DNA of 64,000 bases from Eledone cirrhosa (lineage: Eukaryota), in contig OZ024740.1 in the NCBI GenBank assembly GCA_964016885.1, positions 86,800,001 to 86,864,000 on the forward strand. The letters run 5' to 3'. Positions 3,544 to 63,549 of the stretch are shown here, in pieces. The position numbers were made by a program, and so were the translations under genes. Under the pieces are notes generated by a model that worked only from the letters and a program-made list of their open reading frames with translations, did not search any database and had not been told where the DNA came from. Positions within the stretch are counted from its first letter, which is position 1, and each line of letters opens with the position of its first letter.

Positions 3544-3586
3544 GTCATAGTTCTTTCGTCACACACTCTGTGACCTCTTCAGTGAC
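3544..3586 (-). ncRNA. Minimal type I hammerhead ribozyme in pLTR
   Basis: GTCA-CTGAAGA-g GTCACA GAGTG TGTGAC-GAAA-GAAC-TA-TGAC. Confidence 0.8.
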
Positions 3587-7097: not shown

Positions 7098-9443
7098 AGA
7101 ATCTGGGGAAGATGTGGACCGACATCTCAGATATGCACCTGTCCAAGTCCCAGATTGATTTCATTCTGGTGAGGAAAAAGTGGCGGAATAGTGTTCTGAA
7201 CACAGAGCCATACAACTATTTCATTACACTGGGTAGTGACCACCGGCATGTTATGAGTGAGGTCCAGGTGAGCTTAAGAAAGAGCATGGCTCGGCCGCGG
7301 AGAGCAATCTATGACTGAGGAGCTTTCAAGGAAGATGATAAGCTAGAGGAGAGGTTCACAGTGGAAGTGAGAAACAGGTTTAGTGCTCTGTGTGGAGAGT
7401 CAGAGGAGAGAGAGATTGGATGGACTGAGGAGAGTGTGACGAGGAGGTACGGGCACTTCACCAATGCAGTGGCGGAAGCAAGTGAAACCCTGGTGCCGAG
7501 GAAAAAGAAAAAAGGGAAGCACGTCAGCTCTGCAAACCCAAAAGTGTGTGCAGCCAGAGAACACCTGAAAGCTGCCAAGGACCAATTCTATGCTGATCCT
7601 ACGGATGAGAGGATGGAGACTGTGGAGGTGATGAGGGAAGCGCTCTGTACCGCTTACACTGAGGTCAGAGAGGAGGCACTGATAGAGAAGATCAGAAGTG
7701 TGGAGAGAGCGGTTGACAGATCTGGATGTAAGGAGAGCTGGATGATCATCAACGAGATCACAGGGAGGAAGAGAAGGTGTTCGAGTCAGATCCAGGGAAC
7801 GGGGCCCGAGGATAGGAAGAGGAAATGGCTAGACTATTTTAGGACCCTACTAAGAGAGCCACCCTCCACAGCCCAGAGCACTGGGGAGATCAGGCGGCTG
7901 TTTGAGGAACTGGATGTTGAGACAGAACCCTTCACCAGAGAGGAGCTTCAGAGAGCCAAGAAGAGGATCAAGGAGGGCAAGACTCACGGAGAAGATGGAG
8001 TGGCATCAGAAGTGATGAAGAGGTGTGATTTTGATGATATCATCCTGGGGTTCTGTAACCGGGCACTGGAGAAAGGAGTTGCCCCGAATCAGTGGAGGAT
8101 CAGTAACATCGTCCCAGTGCCAAAGAAGGGAGATCTCTCTAACACCAACAACTACAGGGGGATCTCACTGACTTCACTTGTGGCAAAAACCCTCAACAGG
8201 ATGATTCTTAAAAGGATCCAGCCTGAGATGGAGAAGAAGCTCAGGGACAACCAGAACGGCATCAGAGAGGGTAGATCAACCACCAGTCACATCCTGATGC
8301 TGATGAGGATATTAGAGGGAGCTAGAGCAAAGTGCCTTCCTGCGGTCATGGTTTTCATTGACTTTAGGAAGGCCTTTGATTCTGTGGACCGTTACTGCCT
8401 GATGAAGATCTTACAGGCTTATGGAATCCCCAAGAAGATAGTGGACCTGATATCACTGCACTACACCAACACCAAAGCCCAAGTCATTACACCTGATGGG
8501 ATGACAGAGTTCTTTGAGATACTGGCTGGAGTGCTCCAGGGAGATACATTGGCTCCCTACCTTTTTATCATCGTAGTGGACTATTGTATGCGCCTTGCAC
8601 TGGAGAAACACCAGGATTCTGGGTTTACTGTAGCACCGGCTCAGAGCAGGAGAGTTAGGGCGAAAAAGGTATCGGATGCTGAATTTGCCGATGACATAGT
8701 TTTGGTGACAAATACAGTGAAGGAGGCAGAGGATTTGATGCGGGAGGTTGAGACTATGTCGATGAGTGTGGGGCTGAGAATGAATGAAACTAAAACAAAA
8801 TATCTGGTAGAGAATGTTGAGAAGCCAGAGTGGATCACTAATGTAGGCGGGAAGCCGCTAGAATTGGTTGCAGCCTTCCTGTATTTGGGAGCAAAGATTG
8901 GGAATACGGAAGATGATGTGGTTGAGAGGAAGAGCAAGGCCTGGGCGGCGTGCCACAGCTTGAGATCGGTGTGGAAGTCGGACCTTCGTAGAGACCCTGA
9001 AAATCCGCCTCTTCATTGCTGTAGTGGAGTCTGTGCTGCTGTATGGGTCTGAGACTTGGACACTGACCAAGAAACTCACTCAGATGGTGGATGGGTGCTA
9101 CACGAGAATGCTGAGGATGGCTCTGAACATTAATCAGTATACACTGATGGTGAAAAACTCAGAGCTGTATGGGAGCATCCCAAAAGTCAGCTCAAAAGTG
9201 ACACAGAGGAGACTGAGGTTAGCTGGACATGCTCAGCGACATCCGGAGTTGACATTGCACTCAGTGCTCCTTTGGGAGCCCCTACATGGACACACTAGAA
9301 GTGGAAGACCAAGGTTAACGTATGTTGATGCCCTAAAGACAGACACTGGTCTGTTGGAGACGCAGGACATGGCAGCGATAATGGGGGACAGAGACCACTG
9401 GAGAGCACTCGTCCATGGATTTCGGGAATTTTACCCGCATCAG
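7098..9443 (+). mobile_element. 5'-truncated RTE-type LINE inserted in (TA)n
   Basis: APE tail [12 protein letters not shown]; RT motifs [48 protein letters not shown]; stop at 7316 and frameshift near 8995. Confidence 0.92.
7361..9052 (+). pseudogene. LINE reverse transcriptase (disrupted; continues in frame 9024-9440)
   Basis: 563-aa ORF with all non-LTR RT motifs. Confidence 0.9.
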
Positions 9444-9459
9444 ATATATATATATTTAC

Positions 9460-9532
<73 letters not shown>

Positions 9533-9535
9533 CAC

Positions 9536-9566
<31 letters not shown>

Positions 9567-9589
9567 CATATACACATATATATATATAC

Positions 9590-9621
<32 letters not shown>

Positions 9622-9671
9622 TTATATATACATATATATATATATATATATACATATATATATAAATATAT

Positions 9672-9725
<54 letters not shown>

Positions 9726-9795
9726 TAAAATAACAGATTAAAGTTTAAACAAAGCAGAGCCCTCTCTGGATTTTAGTCTTCAATTTTATTATTAT

Positions 9796-9890
<95 letters not shown>

Positions 9891-9927
9891 CATATATATA
9901 TATACATATACATATATATACATATAC

Positions 9928-10035
<108 letters not shown>

Positions 10036-10063
10036 ATACATATACATATATATATACATATAC

Positions 10064-10127
<64 letters not shown>

Positions 10128-10129
10128 AC

Positions 10130-10192
<63 letters not shown>

Positions 10193-10215
10193 TATATGTA
10201 TATATCTGTATATAT

Positions 10216-10375
<160 letters not shown>

Positions 10376-10401
10376 CATATATATATATATATATATATAC
10401 T

Positions 10402-10556
<155 letters not shown>

Positions 10557-10680
10557 TTATATATATATATATATCAGATAGGGTGTGGTAAAACCAGGTA
10601 GACCAAAACCCACTAGAGTACTCAATATTTGGGGTATAGAGAGGGTAATATGAAAAGATTCAAGGGTCCTGAATCTTTTC

Positions 10681-10714
<34 letters not shown>

Positions 10715-11177
10715 GTATATATATATGTATATATATATATATGTATATATGCACATAAAGAAATTCAAATAGCAGAAATAAAATAATAAGATCATGATAA
10801 TTATCATGGTTAAAGCCAGATTTACCAACTTGAATGCTTTTTTTCTTCAAAACTGTTTTATCCAAGATTTATGAACACAATTAAATCACTAACTGGGTCT
10901 TTGGAATACAGCTGAGCTACATTATTTAAAATATCTGTTTAGTCTTTTCTAGATTTAGTGTTTTGTATTGTATATGCACTGTCGGGCTAAACAGAACAGT
11001 TTGGTTTCTGTGAGATTATGAAGAAGCACATTTTAATTGCAACAAACCATTTCCAGTAGTAATTAGAATAATCTTGTCCAACAATATATTAATTTGCATT
11101 AATATGAAGGAAAAAATGTTTTAAAAACTTCTTAGTGATTGGTGTGGCGCTCATACAACAATTTTGGTATATACATA

Positions 11178-11281
<104 letters not shown>

Positions 11282-11484
11282 TAGATAGATATATATACAT
11301 ATATATATATATATACACATATATATATACACATATATATATACATATATATATATACATATATATATACATATATATATATACATATATATATACAGAT
11401 ATATATATACATATATATATATATACATATATATATATACATATATATATATACACATATATATATATACATATATATATATAC

Positions 11485-11515
<31 letters not shown>

Positions 11516-11636
11516 CATATATATAGTAATAATAATAAATATGAAGACTAAAATCCAAAGAGGGCTCGATAAGGATAAATATATATCAAATATATAGAGA
11601 ACTGTAGAGCAAATACTTATTAAAATAACAGATTAA

Positions 11637-11687
11637 AGTTTAAGCAAAGAATCGCTGCTTTCACCCTTAACGGGATCTTCTGAAACT
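11637..11687 (-). ncRNA. Hammerhead ribozyme, U4A core
   Basis: Same fold as 4253-4303. Confidence 0.7.
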
Positions 11688-12635
11688 AATAAAGCCAATC
11701 TGTAAACGCAGAAGTGGATATTTCAAAAAACGTTGCAACCGGAGGAAGACAGGAAGACGATACTTTGGTTCGTGGAAACGTTTCCCTGGCAAAGAACGGG
11801 AAAAAACGAATATAATACGTCATTAATAGGAGCGGTGAAAAACAATTACGCGCAAAGACAGAACCACGTTTATGGCATAAAAGAGATCGTAGACTAATGT
11901 TCTCTTAGGTGGTTCATAGAGACGTTCTCTGGCAATGAACGAAAAAAACGAAGATAATACGTCATATGTGGAGCGTGGAGAACAATTGAGCGCAAAGACA
12001 AAGACAAAATCACGTAAACGGTATAGCAGAAGTCGTAGACTAAAATTCTAACTAGGAGACCGAATGAATCTCCGCTTCAGAGTTAAGAACAAAGTAAATA
12101 AATACAATACAGAGGTAATAGAAATTAAATAAATACATACACGCATACAAATACGTACATACACAAGCATACGCGAAAACACTTACCATAGGTATACAAA
12201 ACCACGCACATATAAATATGTGTGTGTGTGTGTATGCATGTATACAAATAAATAAATAATTAAATAAACGTATATAAATAAATAAATACGTATATAACAA
12301 GCGCTCACACATACCTACATGTAAATACACAAATGTTCGGAGACATAAGTCAACCAAAACATGAAGTACACATATACACACACCCTACATACGTACGAAC
12401 CTGAATACTCACACAGACGCAAAACACCCGCATACACATAATCAAACCATATGTACCAGAAAATATAAAATTATACGCCATAACATATACAATCAAATAT
12501 TCGTACGAGAAGGTATACGTACCTTCACAAAACATACAGGTAATATATGCTTACCTATGCAAATAAGTAATGGTATAAACAAAACATATACTTAGCTACC
12601 ACATCAAGACGCAAAATATCCACGTATAGATCGTA

Positions 12636-13352
12636 CTATCCGTTAGGGTATAACGTGGGGCTGTAATACAGGAATGTTTTGTGCAATTTATGTTTACAAG
12701 CCGAAATTGCCTCAGACTTTTTGTTTAAGATGTGGTCTGTGGCGTAGAGTATTTCCAGGGCCTCAGCGGCGCAGAGGTCACATGGTCTTTTATTTCCATT
12801 ATACGATCTAGCCCTAGCTAGGATCTCCCAGTGTAACTTATAATGGGTGTGGTTGTCTTTTAGACTCCAGATATATGCTGAAAGTGACGTCATATTCCTT
12901 CTTAGAGGGTAACGAAAAGAATGGGTATGCATGTAAAGACGCTGCTTGAATCTATTGGCGGTTAACCCTATGTAGGCCCTACGGGACGTGGGTGTTTCAA
13001 CCTTACATTTGTAGACAATGTTACTAGAGAGGCATTTCCCTGATAGGGGGCAATCAACCCGATTCCTACAATTACAGTTAGTACTGACTACAGGGTTGCA
13101 CGTGTTCCTACGGCTAGGTAGTTTAGCTAAATTTGAAGCTGTGATGTTATGTGCAAGGTGATGAGTCGTAGAGTAAGAAATTTTAATAGTATTTCTATTA
13201 AAAATGTTACTATATTTATGTGTAGGGGGAAAATGCTTCGTAATAAGGGAAAGAAAGATCTTAGCTAATGGTGTGGCCACCTCCATATTATATGGTGGGT
13301 TATACCAACAAATGCGACGGGATTTATTTCTTCTAGGTCTATTTTCGTACAC
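12636..13352 (-). pseudogene. PLE linker plus GIY-YIG endonuclease (Naiad-like), no RT core
   Basis: 238-aa ORF; upstream in-frame [17 protein letters not shown] is interrupted by stops. Confidence 0.88.
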
Positions 13353-13499
13353 TGTTTATGCTACCTAATCGATAAATGCACTCCGAGCAAGAGCTTCATT
13401 GTAATAAGTGGAATGGTCGTTGAAAATATGCTCGTTAGTAGATATTGACTTTGTTAGTTTCAGAAGATCCCGTTTAATGTGTTATTTTAATAAATATAC

Positions 13500-13548
<49 letters not shown>

Positions 13549-13897
13549 CATATATATATACATATATATATAGATACATACATATATATATATATACATA
13601 TATATATACATATATATATAGATACATACATATATATATACATATATATATATATACATATATATATACATATATATATATACACATATATATATACATA
13701 CACATATATATATATACATATATATATACATATATATTTATATATACATATACATATATATATATACATATACATACATACATATATATATACATATGCA
13801 TACATATATATATGCATATACATACATATATATATATATATACATATATATACATATATATATAAACAGATATATATATACATATATATATATATAC

Positions 13898-13952
<55 letters not shown>

Positions 13953-13977
13953 CATATATATATATACATATATATAC

Positions 13978-14012
<35 letters not shown>

Positions 14013-14157
14013 CATATATATACATATATATACATATATATATACATATATATACATATACATATATATATACATATATATATATACATATATATATATA
14101 TACATATATATATATACATATACATATATGTATATATATATACATATATATATATAC

Positions 14158-14204
<47 letters not shown>

Positions 14205-14304
14205 CATATATATATACATATATATATATATACATTATGAAGAGAGAAGAAACATTTAGATATAATTAGTAATAAAATGTATCATACCTAAACTGTTCCT
14301 AAAT

Positions 14305-14392
14305 TCCTCGACTACGTAGTTTCGTGGCATAAACAAAAACAATATATCAAAGATATAGAGTCCTTGCGAGGTCTGCCGACTTATCAAGAGGA
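14305..14392 (-). ncRNA. Hammerhead ribozyme, U3-A8 core variant
   Basis: Reverse complement of 14898-14985. Confidence 0.8.
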
Positions 14393-14897
14393 TACCTCAT
14401 TTTACTAGTCCCAAGAACGCGTCTACACGACGTGAGAAAGAATCCCAAAAGGCGGAGGGGGAGATAGTCACGCGATATAACGGTCGAGAAACAGAGCTAA
14501 ACCTCTTATAACCACGAAGAAAATACCACGGAGGCGGAGGGGGTATTCATATCGAGGCCGTAGAAGAGGTAGTGAAGAAGGCGAGAAGTATGAGTAATGG
14601 AAGCTTTCCAGTTGTCCCCACACCTCAAAGATTGCTCGACCAGAGGGAGTTATTAATATATTTAGAAACACACAGATACATGCGGACACACACATATATA
14701 CATGAATGCATCCGCACCCAATTGTGAGTTAAGGGTGCCAACTTCTCCCCCTCTGCCTCCGTGGTATTTTCTTCGTGGTTATAAGAGGCTTAGCTCTGTT
14801 TCTCGACCGTTATATCGCGTGACTATCTCCCCCTCCGCCTTTTGGGATTCTTTCTCACGTCGTGTAGACGCGTTCTTGGGACTAGTAAAATGAGGTA

Positions 14898-14985
14898 TCC
14901 TCTTGATAAGTCGGCAGACCTCGCAAGGACTCTATATCTTTGATATATTGTTTTTGTTTATGCCACGAAACTACGTAGTCGAGGA
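14898..14985 (+). ncRNA. Hammerhead ribozyme, U3-A8 core variant
   Basis: TCCTC-TTGATAA-GTcGGCA..TGCCAC-GAAA-CTACGTAG-TC-GAGGA; GUC site, palindromic stem III. Confidence 0.82.
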
Positions 14986-15488
14986 ATTTAGGAACAGTTT
15001 AGGTATGATACATTTTATTACTAATTATATCTAAATGTTTCTTCTCTCTTCATAATGTATTTTTAACTCTGATACTGGTTCAGTCTGGTTCAAACTGAAT
15101 TGGTCTGTCCCAGTCATTCATTGAGCAACATCGGTGAAGTTGGCACCCTTAACTCACAGTTGGGTGCGGATGCATTCATGTATATATGTGTGTGTCCGCA
15201 TGTATCTGTGTGTTTCTAAATATATTAATAACTACCTCTGGTCGAGCAATCTTTGAGGTGTGGGGACAACTGGAAAGCTTCCATTACTCATACTTCTCGC
15301 CTTCTTCACTACCTCTTCTACGGCCTCGATATGAATACCCCCTCCGCCTCCGTGGTATTTTCTTCGTGGTTATAAGAGGCTTAGCTCTGTTTCTCGACCG
15401 TTATATCGCGTGACTATCTCCCCCTCCGCCTTTTGGGATTCTTTCTCACGTCGTGTAGACGCGTTCTTGGGACTAGTAAAATGAGGTA

Positions 15489-15576
15489 TCCTCTTGATAA
15501 GTCGGCAGACCTCGCAAGGACTCTATATCTTTGATATATTGTTTTTGTTTATGCCACGAAACTACGTAGTCGAGGA
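15489..15576 (+). ncRNA. Hammerhead ribozyme, U3-A8 core variant
   Basis: Identical copy 591 bp downstream. Confidence 0.82.
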
Positions 15577-15886
15577 ATTTAGGTACAGTTTAGGTATGAT
15601 ACATTTTATTACTAATTATATCTAAATGTTTCTTCTCTCTTCATAATGTATTTTTAACTCTGATACTGGTTCAGTCTGGTTCAAACTGAATTGGTCTGTC
15701 CCAGTCATTCATTGAGCAACATCGGTGAAGTTGGCACCCTTAACTCACAGTTGGGTGCGGATGCATTCATGTATATATGTGTGTGTCCGCATGTATCTGT
15801 GTGTTTCTAAATATATATATATACATATATATATACATATATATATATACATATATATATCTACATATATATACATATATATATAC

Positions 15887-45721: not shown

Positions 45722-45767
45722 TATACCCTTCTGCCAGATAGTTGAACGTTCGAAAGTATATACTTTC

Positions 45768-45883
45768 AACTATCTGGCAGAAGGGTATAAAATTCAGGCT
45801 GTTCAGTTTGTTTACAAACGAACAAAGCGGCGTTATAATAAGCGTCCGCTAAACTTATACGTGCATATATGTATGTGTACCTG

Positions 45884-46489: not shown

Positions 46490-46850
46490 CAAGACGGTAT
46501 TTTAACGATAGTTATAGCTCTGATTCATCTGAATTATTGAGCCCTCTGCCGCTCATATCGAATTTCGTTTATCGTGAACTCGTGCGCCGATTTTTCGATA
46601 CTCGATCTTTCTAATATATTTAGCTCTGGACATAGCTATCCACCAGTTAATTTTATTGCTCATTTTTTGTCGATTCTATTGAGTGATGAATAGCTTTTGT
46701 TTTATTTTAACATGTCTATTGAGCACTCTAATTCGATATGTGTATTTCCACATTCACTCGAATTGTTTTCGCGGATATAGGGGTCATCTCCCTTGTCTAA
46801 TGCCATGTGCGTTTTTCACCGCTAGTTGACTCCTCTGCCGCCAGGAAAAA

Positions 46851-46985
46851 ACTCGTTGATAACGTAAACTCCGTTCCACTTACTCTAGTAGGCTTTTATG
46901 TTTATATGTGAGCTGATAGAGTACAGTCTAAGGATTTACAGAAACCCATGAAGCTAGATTTAACACCTTTCTAGTGGGTCCGGGT
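46851..46985 (+). ncRNA. Extended hammerhead ribozyme, U3-A8 core
   Basis: ACTCG-TTGATAA-c GTAAAcTCC..GGATTTAC a-GAAA-CCCA..CTAG..CTAG TGGG-TC-CGGGT. Confidence 0.78.
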
Positions 46986-47465
46986 ATGATTTTACATTCA
47001 TTTAAATTATTGACGTATTGTTTTATTGATATTTTTTATCTGTTTGGCCCGAATCTTCCTTTATCGATTTTAAATCGTATGGTTGATTGTAGACTTGTTC
47101 TATATGTGACGGTATTTTAACGATAGTTATAGCTCTGATTCATCTGAATTATTGAGCCCTCTGCCGCTCATATCGAATTTCGTTTATCGTGAACTCGTGC
47201 GCCGATTTTTCGATACTCGATCTTTCTAATATATTTAGCTCTGGACATAGCTATCCACCAGTTAATTTTATTGCTCATTTTTTGTCGATTCTATTGAGTG
47301 ATGAATAGCTTTTGTTTTATTTTAACATGTCTATTGAGCACTCTAATTCGATATGTGTATTTCCACATTCACTCGAATTGTTTTCGAGGATATAGGGGTC
47401 ATCTCCCTTGTCTAATGCCATGTGCGTTTTTCACCGCTAGTTGACTCCTCTGCCGCCAGGAAAAA

Positions 47466-47600
47466 ACTCGTTGATAACGTAAACTCCGTTCCACTTACTC
47501 TAGTAGGCTTTTATATTTATATGTGAGCTGATAGAGTACAGTCTAAGGATTTACAGAAACCCATGAAGCTAGATTTAACACCTTTCTAGTGGGTCCGGGT
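47466..47600 (+). ncRNA. Extended hammerhead ribozyme, U3-A8 core
   Basis: Copy 615 bp downstream. Confidence 0.78.
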
Positions 47601-47837
47601 ATGATTTTACATTCATTTAAATTATTGACGTATTGTTTTATTGATATTTTTTATCTGTTTGGCCCGAATCTTCCTTTATCGATTTTAAATCGTATGGTTG
47701 ATTGTAGACTTGTTCTATATGTGACGGTATTTTAACGATAGTTATAGCTCTGATTCATCTGAATTATTGAGCCCTCTGCCGCTCATATCGAATTTCGTTT
47801 ATCGTGAACTCGTGCGCCGATTTTTCGATACTGAATC

Positions 47838-47920
<83 letters not shown>

Positions 47921-54979: not shown

Positions 54980-56212
54980 CATCATCATCATTATCATCAT
55001 CATCGTTTAACGCCTGTCTTCCATGCTACCATGGGTTTAGACAGGAATTGTCCCACTTGAGGCAAGATTGGTGTGGTGGCCGTGTCTCGCTCTATAGGCA
55101 GGTTTTCTACGGCTGGATGCCCTTCCTAATGCCACCCACATTTACAGTGTGGACTGGGAGGTTTCTACTGTGTTACCTACACGGTCACATTACAGCATGG
55201 ACTGTGTGTTTTTTGTCGTGACACCTACACGACCTCATTTATTTTGGACTGGATGTTGTGGTACCAACATAACTTTACAGAGAAAGGGTGTTGATGGGTG
55301 TGGGAGGGTGGAGTAGGGGTAGTGTGGATGGGGTGTATATTTGGTTATGAGGTGCCTACTGACTGTAGGTTTCGCTTTGTACATAGGCAAGGCGGGTCTT
55401 CTGTATTACTGCGTGGCGCCAAAGATCTCGGTCCAGTGACATTGTATTAGAGAGGTGCAAGTGTGTAAGGTCGGAATTTATCAAATCATCCCAGGTTTTT
55501 CTGGGTCTACCTACTCCGTAACTTCCATCAATTTTGATCGCCCGGCACGTTTTTATACAGCTGTCGTCTTTCATGCGCATCACGTGACTATACCAACGTA
55601 GTTTTCTCTCAAGTAAACAGCATCTGATCCCTCTTATTCCTAATTTCTCACTTATATTACTATTACACATCCAACGGAGCATGCATGCTTCATTCCTCTC
55701 CAGTCTGCACAGGTCCTCTGCACACAATGCCCCTGTCTCACTGCCATGTCACATTGCTGTTCGTATACAAGCATCATACAATCTGCCTTTCATTTTGAGA
55801 TAGAAACATTTAGTGACTAATAGTGGTATAAGCTCTCTGAACTTTTTCCATCCAGTTCTGAATCTGGCTACTGTACTTTCAGAACACCCTCCACCACTGC
55901 TGATTTCGTCACCCAGGTAACGGAAAGTGTCTACTATTTCTATAGAACCATCTGGGTAATAGAAGGAGCTAGTATCCTGTGGGCACTTGCTACTTATAGC
56001 ACCTGAGCATCAGCCACATATAAAATCTACGTTCTTAGATAGTTTACATGTGATCCTACTACATCGTTTTTGTACCCATAGTTTGCATTTGGGACATAAA
56101 ATGGAATTTCTGCCTACTCCTTTCCTACACACTGAGCATGGCCATTTCTCAGAGGGCACCTATACCCTATTTTCCTTTCTACATACGAGAACTTTAGTCT
56201 TAGACAAGTTAA
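54980..56212 (-). mobile_element. 5'-truncated RTE-type LINE with (GAT)n tail
   Basis: Homologous to 59308-60552; LRWYSHVMR, GRPRKTW. Confidence 0.9.
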
Positions 56213-60089: not shown

Positions 60090-61088
60090 TCACATTGCTG
60101 TTCGTATACAGGCATCATACAATCTGCCTTTCATTTTTAGAGAGAAACCTTTCGTGGCCAACAGCGATATAAGCTCTCTGAACTTTTTCCACCCCGTTCT
60201 GACTCTGGCTACTGTACTTTCAGAACACCCTCCACCACTGCTGATTTTGTCACCCAGGTAACGGAAAGTGTCTACTATTTCTATAGAACCATCTGGGCAA
60301 TAGAAGGAGCTAGTATCCTGTGGACACTTGCTACTTATTGCACCTGAGCATCGGCCACATATAAAGTCAACGTTCTTAGATAGTTTACCTGTGATCCCAC
60401 TACATCTTTTATGTACCCATACTTTGCATTTGGGACATAAAATGGAATTTCTGCCTCCACCTTTCCTACACACTGAGCATGGCCATTTCCCTGAGGGCAC
60501 CTGTGCCCTATTTTCCTTTCTACAAACTAGAACTTTAGTCTTAGACAAGTTAACTTTAAGGCCTTTTGATTCTAGGCCATGCTTACATGTTTCGAATTTC
60601 TTCTCTAGTTCAGCCATTGATTCAGCTATGAGCGTTAGATCATCTGCATATAGGAGTTCCCATGGGCAGCCGGTCTTGAACTCCTCTTTTATAGCCTGAA
60701 GGGCAATAATAAATAGGAGGGGGATAAGGACAGAGCCTTGATGAACGCCAACTTTTACACTAAATTCTTCACAATATCCATTGTTAATTCTAACCTTACT
60801 GACTGTTTCATTATACATAGCTTGTATAGCTCTCACAAGCCATTCATCTACACCTAGTTTTCTAAGAGCCCACCAGATAATGGAGCGGGAGACTCTGTCA
60901 AAGGCTTTCTCCAGGTCTACAAAAGCTAAGTATAGGGGTTTACTTTTAGCTAGGTACTTCTCTTGTAGTTGTCGTACAAGGAAAAGAGCGTCTGTGGTAC
61001 TTTTACCTGGCACAAACCCAAACTGCATTTCATCTAGATCAATTCGCTCTCTGATGAGTTTCGCTATAACTCTTTCTGTGACCTTCAT
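60090..61088 (-). pseudogene. LINE reverse transcriptase fragment
   Basis: 332-aa ORF with YADD and a Cys/His cluster. Confidence 0.9.
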
Positions 61089-61403
61089 GACCTGGTCAAC
61101 TAACTTAATGCCTCTATAGTTTCCCCTATCTAGAGCATCCCTTTACCCTTGTAGCAGTTAATGATGATGCTGCTACGCCAGTCTTTCGGTATGACCCCAT
61201 TCTGTATTACTTGGTTAACTATACGGGTGACCATAGTGTGTCCCACCATACCAGATGCCTTCAACATCTCAGCAACTATCTCCGAAGACCCAGCTGCCTT
61301 GCCTGTCTTCATATCTTTGATTGCCTTACTTATTATACTACCTTTAACTTGCACCGCTGGTCCTTCTATTGGATCGATTTGGGGCAGACTATCTTTTTTC
61401 CAT

Positions 61404-62489
61404 TTATTCTCCTATCTTCTTATTAGTATCAGTGAGCGCAAGTACACCTTTATCATTACGGATACACTTCTCCCCGACAATATCACGGTTTTCCTTGACA
61501 CATTGTCTAGCAATCCTGAACACCTCACGTTTTTGGTCCTCACGTTGTAGAACAAGCTTGAACTTTCTATCCTCTGCTACCCTTTTTGCAAGGTACACTT
61601 GTCTCCTAGCTTCTCTCCTGGCCACTTGAGAGTGCTCTCTACTTCCCCCATCCTGCCATACTTTCCAAGCCTGCTTTTTGGCCTTGATTGTCTCTTCCAT
61701 CTTACTGTTCCACCACCAAGTTACTCTCCTCCTGCCAATAGGTCTGCTCCAGCCACAGATTTCATCCGTTGCTTTCAGCAGGTTCACTTTCAAAAATTGC
61801 CACTGTTCATCTATATCGCACGTCTCTAATTTCTCTTCCTTATTGTCAAAGGCATCAAGTAATAAGCTTTTAAATTTGTCACTGGCTATGGGGTCCTTCA
61901 ACTTCCATATTCTTCTCTTCAAGGTAGGCCTCCTCTTTCGTCGAGTACGTCTATTCCTGACTATGAGGTCACTAACTACTAGGCTATGTTGGGAGGTGCA
62001 TTCTTCACGGGGAAGGGATTTAGTGTTTACAACAGACACTTTGCCCCGTCTTCCAGTAAGGATATAATCTATCTGGCTGGCGTGTTCCCCTGATCTGTAG
62101 GTGATCAAGTGGTTTTCACGTTTTTTGAAGCTTGTGTTACAGATAGTTAGGCTATTTGCGTCACAGAATTCCAGGATTCTGAAGCCCTCCTCATTTCTAT
62201 TTCCAACCCCATAGCCTCCATGGATTCCATCATAGCCATCACTAAGTTGTCCAACGTGATCGTTTAGATCGCCAGCAATAATTAAGTAGTCGCTGTCGGT
62301 TATTTGGGAGGTATTGTGCATTAGCATCTCATAGAACCTGTCCTTTATAACATCAGGTAGACCAGATTGGGGTGCATAAGCGGATATTATTGTCACAGTA
62401 GTTCTATTTAGAACTAGTCTTAATTTAATTATTCTGTCATTCACTCTATTTACGTCAATTACCTTATCTACCCATTTTTCAGCTAACAT
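61404..62489 (-). pseudogene. LINE apurinic endonuclease fragment
   Basis: 361-aa ORF with APE motifs. Confidence 0.9.
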
Positions 62490-63549
62490 AATTCCTACAC
62501 CACCCTATCCGTTGTCATCTCCCACCCAGAAAAGTTTATAGCATCGTTTTTTACCCACGATGAATCTGGCAGACCCCCCTCTCCACCTAGTCTCTTGAAT
62601 ACAACAAACATCAACTTATTTACGTTCAAGCATCTCTACAACCTCATTTGAGCAACCTTTCAATGTTCCTACGTTCATGGTACCAACTCTGAAGTTGGGA
62701 GGGTGGGACCTACGTTCATGGTACCAACTCTGAAGTTGGGAGGGTGGGATGGATGGGTTGGATGGGCAGGGAGGGGTGTGGGAGACGGAATTGTGTTGGT
62801 CATCCGTATCTGAAATAAAGAGGGGTCCTTGTATTCTCGTCTGGCAGCGGGAAGTGAATTTATCTTTATCTGTGACATTGTCATTGAGTGCTTATACTTT
62901 CCAAATTTCAGCAGTCAACCCATCAAACAGGTCTAAACTTAAGGAGTAGTAACCGGGGTGGTAGCTTTGCTATACTGATTTGTTAGAGAACTTACTAAAG
63001 CCGCTGAGTTATGATTGGACCATATAGCAATGGTGGGGGGTGGGGGGTAACTTTAGGAGAAGGTTAGTTTTTAGGAAGGGTCCAACAGATTGAGACATAT
63101 TATTAAAAACATGTAAAATAATAATTGAAAATCCGGGAGGAAAACGGAGAATTTGAATTTTAGACTGGCATAAATAGGAGTTTAAAACACTGCTTATTGA
63201 GAAGAATACTGATAAAAGAAAAGACAAATATTGCTTACATTCTCAAAATCGACAGATCGCCCGTAAGGTAGATTATATAGATAAATTCTGTCCTTGGGAA
63301 CCAGCAAGATTTATTTTATACTTGCGATCAGGCGGAGGGGTGGTATGAGAGAAGGAGAAAAGTGTTTACAAAGTTTGCGAGCGAGATGCAGGAAGGTTCA
63401 TATATATATTTTTTCCTCCGCCTCTATCTTTACACTCGGCCCTTGAAAAAATTGATTCCACTTCATTTACTCTCATCTCGGGAACAATTTTGAATAGCGC
63501 CAGTTCGTAATTTGAATTCGGGAATTTTATATTCTTCGAATGAAAAGAT

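Follow-up and report, generated by a model that had tools for sequence, protein, structure and literature searches.

We propose that a 591-bp repeat found in the 64,000-nucleotide stretch of DNA analysed here (the window) represents a young, high-copy retrozyme, with a U3-A8 hammerhead core and no open reading frame (ORF), and that it is likely copied in trans into (TA)n runs by the reverse transcriptase (RT)-endonuclease of a Penelope-like element (PLE). The enzyme that moves animal retrozymes has so far been inferred from co-occurrence and from similarity to pLTRs, and the value of the 591-bp family is that it makes the question of the retrozyme helper directly testable, because the in vitro assay already established for PLEs could be supplied with a defined RNA, start sites and target, and with candidate enzymes that are intact. 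Both the empty site and the U3-A8 core are ordinary parts of this finding, which goes far beyond the three motif copies reported in the preliminary description of the window.

The 591-bp-family block of the window (positions 14230-15816, ~1.59 kb) is a whole two-armed, 5'-inverted insertion, delimited by arm mapping and missing from a duplicate of the region. It consists of an inverted arm (14230-14748, minus strand), which runs from unit position u572 back to u54 (u1 being window position 15080), and a forward arm (14747-15816, plus strand), which extends over 1.81 tandem units from u259 to u146 (locus L001). The 3' end of the inverted arm is at fixed site A (CATAATGTAT/TATA, where the slash marks the end of the element) and the forward arm ends at fixed site B (TTTCTAAATATAT/ATAT). 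In the block, the motif TCCTC-TTGATAA-57-nt stem II-GAAA-CTACGTAG-TC-GAGGA is present in three identical copies, one in the inverted arm (14305-14392, minus strand) and two in the forward arm (14898-14985 and 15489-15576, plus strand); a motif scan of the window placed their cores at -14387, +14903 and +15494, the latter two spaced by 591, in agreement with the two tandem copies and one inverted copy described previously. In the forward arm, cleavage is predicted after positions 14980 and 15571, helix III is palindromic (ACUACGUAGU in the second copy), and the predicted excised monomer or circular RNA (14981-15571, plus strand) would have 591 nt, 42% GC and no ORF. The stretch between both fixed 3' ends, which are the putative reverse-transcription start sites, forms a 165-nt "tail" (15652-15816, plus strand), present in one arm only. 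No terminal direct repeats were observed at the block, besides the target duplication.

The window includes two near-identical copies of a segment (8615-21994 and 22195-32722), separated by a 200-N assembly gap (21995-22194) and differing in 34 of 5,665 bases over eight non-microsatellite blocks. Alignment of the two copies leaves a 1,593-bp gap against position 26616, which corresponds to the missing 591-bp block and corroborates its reported absence from the matching microsatellite near 26.6 kb. The exact register could be established from the C interruptions in the (TA) run: the single 13-bp A/T run of the empty site (26617-26629) flanks the filled copy on both sides (14218-14230 on the left and 15811-15823 on the right, where the first 6 bp, ATATAT, are common with the element end as microhomology), and thus the insertion at 14230-15816 has a target-site duplication of 12-13 bp, above the 4-bp threshold used for retrozymes. 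This duplication, together with the 99% identity of the best family copies, upholds the view that the insertion into (TA)n was recent.

It is unlikely that the empty site arose through a deletion between (TA) runs or through an error of assembly, in which case it would not represent a pre-insertion state. The second copy lacks three blocks in total, the 591-bp block and two others, and holds no extra element, one of the missing blocks (at ~10-11.3 kb) resembles a deletion of mixed sequence, and the two copies meet at the N gap; nevertheless, the removal is exact to one 13-bp run, with all C-interrupted units kept on both sides, a deletion at the hairpin base would leave the unpaired 165-nt tail, other palindromes are retained in the second copy, and the 591-bp family is very young. 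Since the removal is exact and no remnant of the tail is present, we favour an insertion at 14230-15816. The sequence after the N gap starts by repeating the end of the contig before it, which is typical of two haplotypes placed in tandem, and real local duplications also exist in the genome (the pair at 12.3 and 17.7 kb, for example, is 97% identical). The empty copy may be either the second haplotype across the assembly gap or a real tandem duplicate, and the 591-bp copy probably inserted after the near-identical segments, perhaps two alleles, diverged. Paralogous microsatellites of older origin (18.9-20.0 and 30.0-31.4 kb) could not serve as outgroups for the empty site, being too rearranged. 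We also observed that a palindromic two-armed element with C3-G8 hammerheads (20007-20574; motifs at 20261, minus strand, and 20380, plus strand) is missing in the duplicate, and it constitutes a second candidate polymorphic insertion.

In the 3.0-Gb host genome, the 19-nt 3' half of the hammerhead motif has 7,681 exact matches (none for the reversed control) and a subfamily-specific 23-mer has 6,917 exact copies (control, 0). With ~2 motifs per locus (100 hits in 49 loci), these numbers correspond to roughly 3,400 insertions, which are spread over many contigs. The best-matching copies are ~99% identical and most of those in a consecutive sample are 95-99.5% identical. The unit has a GC content of 0.42, under the limit of 45-50% used for non-LTR retrozymes, and no frame open for more than 86 amino acids, and thus the element is ORF-less, as had been proposed; an endless ORF on the circle (591 = 3 x 197) was discarded, as there are stops in every frame, and the RT plus GIY-YIG ORF characteristic of autonomous EN+ PLEs is absent. 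A sister subfamily of ~595 bp, 76% identical overall to the 591-bp unit, is also tandem and ORF-less among the output listed. With tandem 591-bp units, a type I hammerhead in each unit and arms of up to ~6 units, the element falls, by a sequence-level definition, within the non-LTR retrozymes.

Part of the 591-bp unit, near-identical in sequence, is present in sequencing runs labelled with 17 coded organisms, at a depth of ~8-10 in runs X1 and X9. No RNA data set was listed among the carriers of the unit, a result that counts neither for nor against its transcription. The N1 PLE, unrelated to the 591-bp unit, appears in the same runs (X1, X3, X9 and X10, at low to modest depth), and for this reason the runs from other organisms are best read as carry-over. 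Horizontal transfer or an infectious circle was consequently rejected, as the pattern fits carry-over of host DNA. A 621-nt self-closing contig was also discarded as evidence for a circle, given that a tandem repeat yields the same closure.

We analysed insertion ends in a main sample of 49 consecutive loci, which hold the first 100 motif hits on contig C1, and in 17 additional best-hit loci, 66 loci in all. In the main sample, 71 of the 75 3' ends are located at one of two fixed sites, u572 (36 ends) or u146 (35 ends), 165 nt apart and lying 80 and 245 nt, respectively, downstream of the point where cleavage is predicted; none of the 75 ends is at the predicted cleavage site itself. Both fixed sites have TA microhomology to the target, and the flanks are TA-rich on both sides at 37 of the 49 loci, on one side at 10 and on neither at 2. 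Among the two-armed loci, 23 out of 26 have one end of each type (two of the 23 being one duplicated pair; of the remaining loci, one scored as same-type is a sister-family copy beside an insertion and two are other cases), an arrangement with p ~1e-6 against independent choice of site. The best-hit loci include 11 two-armed insertions, 10 mixed and 1 same-type. Sequence divergence is 0.31% between units of an arm, 0.33% between arms of a locus and 1.78% between loci (58 loci), and we take both arms to derive from one template sequence because arms of a locus differ so much less than loci do. At three loci (L015, L089 and L117), 15-30 bp of the sequence flanking the insertion recur as a mirror image on the other side of the (TA)n run, a pattern that suggests fold-back copying at the target site.

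Partial tandems, 5' truncation, an inverted arm, a tail at one end and a bias towards microsatellites are all observed in the family, as in the pattern of PLE-mobilised sequences, with a tail of 165 nt instead of the published 30-40 nt. Tandem arrays with homogeneous units would also be produced if the 591-bp repeat were a satellite DNA spread at the DNA level, by a rolling circle or by recombination, with the hammerhead as a passenger. However, the two fixed 3' ends on the ribozyme-sense strand, the random 5' ends, the inverted two-armed copies, the target duplication and the finding of this signature in PLEs that encode an RT speak against a satellite, which is largely refuted by the end statistics and which we consider extremely improbable.

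The genome is rich in PLEs with long open frames, of which we compared three families, N1, P1 and X. Family N1 is very abundant (76,913 first-look candidates) and has 713-amino acid frames; one copy (from the family of loci L091-L110) is located in the window at 11525-13493, on the minus strand, and others at 4.2-6.2, 17.7-18.9, 24.0-25.9 and 28.8-30.0 kb. Its hammerhead-like motif reads CAGAAGA (U4 -> A) in 19 of the 20 matches listed, with a longer helix III, and its two fixed 3' ends are ~90 nt apart. PLE X (L196-L224 and L260-L265) is young, with a 4.7-kb unit, 775-amino acid open frames that match RVT_1 and GIY-YIG, and a further coding-like stretch upstream; it carries a U3-A8 hammerhead with a palindromic CCGG helix III and a tail of ~66 nt. 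A full-length member of family P1 is present in the window at 37866-42251 (plus strand), with direct pLTRs and a frameshifted ORF, and its relatives have frames longer than 1,200 amino acids with an Asn-rich insert. Fragments of LINE-type reverse transcriptase/endonuclease, named from their translations, were also observed at 7319-9443, 55356-55748 and 60090-62504.

The arrangement with one end of each type is found in all five two-armed loci of N1 and in 15 of the 16 of PLE X, the latter in a sample partly obtained with a query spanning both ends. Because autonomous PLEs follow the same rule, a PLE enzyme is the most likely mobiliser of the 591-bp family. The end TTTCTAA/TATA is common to PLE X and to the 591-bp and 615-bp families, a 591-bp arm is joined directly to a 3' piece of PLE X at locus L054, and an arm of the sister family is joined to a different PLE at locus L117. 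A search for a parent PLE carrying the terminus of the 591-bp unit had been suggested as a check; N1, P1 and X were rejected as parents, having no homology to the 591-bp unit beyond short motifs. No homology of the unit to a pLTR was observed in these three families, out of the many in the genome. As extended homology to N1, P1 or X was not found, PLE X is put forward as a candidate helper only, with intact ORFs and a U3-A8 hammerhead of its own.

The 591-bp unit could alternatively be the pseudo-LTR of an autonomous PLE yet to be found, its copies being 5'-truncated insertions. A hammerhead of PLE type, with palindromic helix III and 5-bp stem I, combined with the insertion anatomy of PLEs would be expected in this case, and the comparison covered three of the many PLE families of the genome. 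Nevertheless, arms contain up to ~6 head-to-tail units with no ORF between them, in none of the 66 loci studied does an arm lead into its own ORF, nearby PLE ORFs are set off by microsatellite where inspected, and the sister family is also tandem and ORF-less among the output listed. A pseudo-LTR origin seems to us quite improbable, and mobilisation in trans by a PLE enzyme remains the preferred explanation.

The motif has the elements of a type I hammerhead core (Y3-UGAN-R8-A, GAAA and U16.1-H17, with positions 3 and 8 forming a Watson-Crick pair), namely TTGATAA, GAAA and TC. Among 266 overlapping copies, partly chosen for having the motif, this core hardly varies, and the longest stretches identical between the 76%-identical subfamilies are the two halves of the ribozyme core (24 + 24 nt). 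In an alignment of 12 sequences, 99.3% of the cells in helices I, II and III around the open-helix-I core are paired; helices I and III carry no covariation, because neither varies in these sequences. Distal stem II has undergone one two-sided and five one-sided changes without losing its pairing; this covariation is modest, since the sequences are related and 13 of 500 shuffles reached an equal score. Helix III is a palindrome of 10 nt, for which folding predicts a self-duplex of -12.9 kcal/mol and no hairpin on its own. The sense circle folds better than shuffled sequences (z -4.9, against -1.2 for the antisense). In ViennaRNA predictions, the 3' strand of stem I is sequestered by a downstream hairpin, and stem I has a probability of ~0 whether the RNA is a circle or a linear dimer; in truncated transcripts, folding gives a probability of at most 0.19. 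The ribozyme is thus predicted to be masked in its sequence context. An Rfam search of 14230-15816 retrieved no hammerhead match at E values up to 10, and the Rfam matches listed for the whole window (150 of 400) are almost all chance miRNA hits on hairpins or microsatellites. In the published work available to us, PLE-type hammerheads are described as cleaving weakly and eight out of nine retrozyme dimers failed to cleave; dimer-cleaving hammerhead motifs with a palindromic helix III like that of the 591-bp unit have also been reported (PMC4209133).

The predicted cleavage site is crossed by 84 of 91 arms (63 loci, with a sampling that favours crossing) and is crossed two to six times by 44 of them, with no pile-up of 5' ends at this site (1 of the 91 lies within 5 nt). 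Since arms cross the cleavage site and 5' ends are rarely near it, the template was not a cut linear monomer; it was therefore a circle or an uncut multimer, and the arm data fit both equally. Arms reach 3.5 kb (~6 units), with near-identical units.

A template in the form of an uncut multimer, transcribed from tandem master copies of the same element, mobilised by a PLE helper and rarely cut by its ribozyme, with no circle, is a possibility that we hold tentatively, as a variant within the best explanation and not as an exclusive alternative to it. The predicted masking of stem I agrees with such a template, the crossing of the cleavage site fits it equally well, and insertion by the PAc PLE was reported to be insensitive to hammerhead mutations in an in vitro system whose main substrate was unprocessed RNA (PMC11167929, as far as its available text goes). 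Against it, subfamilies with 76% identity have kept the core unchanged, implying that catalysis is under selection, and arms extend to 3.5 kb, whereas arrays could only shrink without a circle or template jumping; moreover, related retrozymes are described as accumulating as circles (PMC7229834).

In the mechanism that we propose for mobilisation by a PLE enzyme, tandem 591-bp copies would be transcribed and the hammerhead, with two copies paired through the palindromic helix III, would release a monomer able to circularise. The PLE protein would bind the RNA around the 165-nt tail and would cut both strands of a (TA)n run ~13 bp apart. cDNA would then be primed from each 3' end at either fixed internal site, with short TA microhomology as an aid, and synthesis would roll round the circle or proceed along the uncut multimer until a random stop. 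Once joined, the two cDNAs would form an inverted insertion of two arms, only one of which has the tail. It is conceivable, and we advance it with reservation, that a dimeric PLE RT-endonuclease (PLE X being the candidate) acts on one 591-nt circle generated by the ribozyme, using one fixed site for each (TA)n strand before rolling. If true, the 591-bp insertions would be a direct genomic record of the enzyme that moves animal retrozymes, and would also record coordinated priming of two strands on one circular RNA.

A second tandem family with U3-A8 hammerheads, of 615-bp units, is present in the window at 46493-47852 (plus strand), with motifs at 46851-46985 and 47466-47600 (TTGATAA cores at 46856 and 47471), a long stem III and the end TTTCTAA/TATA. 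This family, also represented by loci L225-L254 and L266-L276, is ORF-less and forms arrays of 10 or more units; its hammerhead, with long helices II and III, is predicted to fold as a monomer, and a 76%-identical sister family exists. All 12 loci sampled, with a bias to long arrays, showed the distal end only, with TTTCTAA ~250 nt after the cleavage site. The 591-bp and 615-bp units give no significant alignment (z 1.6-1.9), and thus the absence of likeness outside the core, noted in the preliminary description, holds for the sequence at large; it does not extend to the 3'-end motif TTTCTAA(A)/TATA, which both families have ~245-250 nt after the cleavage site. In the same way, calling the 591-bp family independent is appropriate with respect to sequence homology, and less so considering that end motif, spacing and target are common to the two families. 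These shared features suggest a common helper enzyme.

The repeated use of the U3-A8 core in this genome, already anticipated, was confirmed, as the core recurs in at least four unrelated families: the 591-bp family with its sister, the 615-bp family, the autonomous PLE X and a short family. Most of the 19 hits obtained by searching the pattern of a U3-A8 core with short stem II (5 hits in the control) belong to the latter (L138-L154), which has a GAC-CAGA-GTC stem II and a palindromic GACGTC helix III, and is older and dispersed; no PLE ORF was seen near it at any of 11 inspected loci. Canonical-core hammerheads of several families are unusually dense in the window, where further ones were located at 3582, 17408, 20769 and 31495 (minus strand) and at 32872, 37905, 42004, 52111 and 63554 (plus strand). 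We also observed a 476-bp tandem array (42387-45864) of ~7 units that contains (TA) runs and has a terminal piece in inverted orientation; the motif scan detected no hammerhead in it.

In the twin priming of L1, a model attributed to Ostertag and Kazazian, both ends of the target duplication reportedly prime on one RNA and a 5'-inverted insertion results. The 591-bp insertions differ from these in having fixed and internal priming sites, no poly(A), and arms that overlap and exceed the unit length.

Metazoan non-LTR retrozymes (Cervera and de la Pena, 2020, PMC7229834), for which PLEs were considered strong candidate helpers, resemble the 591-bp family in their ORF-less tandem units with one type I hammerhead each, GC content below 45%, thousands of copies, absence of LTRs and co-occurrence with PLEs; in a recent study their mechanism is said to remain to be elucidated (Li et al., 2026, bioRxiv 10.64898/2026.07.22.740005). 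The unit of 591 nt is longer than the 170-400 nt described for them (PMC7229834) and lies inside the range of 51-972 nt given by Li et al. (2026), and the family differs from the retrozymes described in the U3-A8 core and in the 57-nt stem II. It also has no pLTR parent among the three PLE families compared, whereas 24 of 57 Xenopus families are reported to match known transposable elements. Targeting of (TA)n, two fixed start sites and inverted insertions with one end of each type are not described for retrozymes in the available text of these two studies (PMC7229834; bioRxiv 10.64898/2026.07.22.740005). Our literature search, conducted without most subscription papers, Repbase and the bioRxiv supplements, found no two-site PLE signature on an ORF-less retrozyme, and within this scope the signature, the 165-nt tail and the near-strict rule of one site per arm appear to be new for such an element.

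The U3-A8 core itself was already published, with ~1,300 hits in Schistosoma (Cervera and de la Pena, 2014, PMC4209133). The hammerheads of the Schistosoma Cercyon PLE are described there with the same U3-A8 covariation, a short helix I and a small palindromic helix III suited to dimer cleavage, and PLE hammerheads with copies on opposite strands 100-700 bp apart, all of which resemble the 591-bp family. In contrast to those PLE hammerheads, the 591-bp motif is found in a free, ORF-less tandem unit, has a much longer stem II and occurs in near-identical copies.

In insertion anatomy, the 591-bp family corresponds to EN+ PLEs, such as PAc (Frangieh, 2024, PMC11167929) and Neptune/Naiad (Craig, 2021, PMC8557442). 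According to the available text of these studies, the PAc protein cuts and extends both strands in vitro and the tail is the stretch between the two RT start sites (PMC11167929); PLE tandems contain an inverted 5'-truncated copy, have the tail at one end and favour microsatellites (PMC8557442). The 591-bp element lacks the RT-GIY-YIG ORF of these PLEs, has a tail of 165 nt where theirs has 30-40 nt, and has TA microhomology at both start sites, unlike PAc, whose initiation in vitro is described without target homology (PMC11167929). Like these PLEs, it has partial tandems, 5' truncation, an inverted arm that is itself 5'-truncated, a pair of putative internal RT start sites located 3' of the hammerhead, a tail at a single end and a bias to (TA)n (PMC11167929; PMC8557442).
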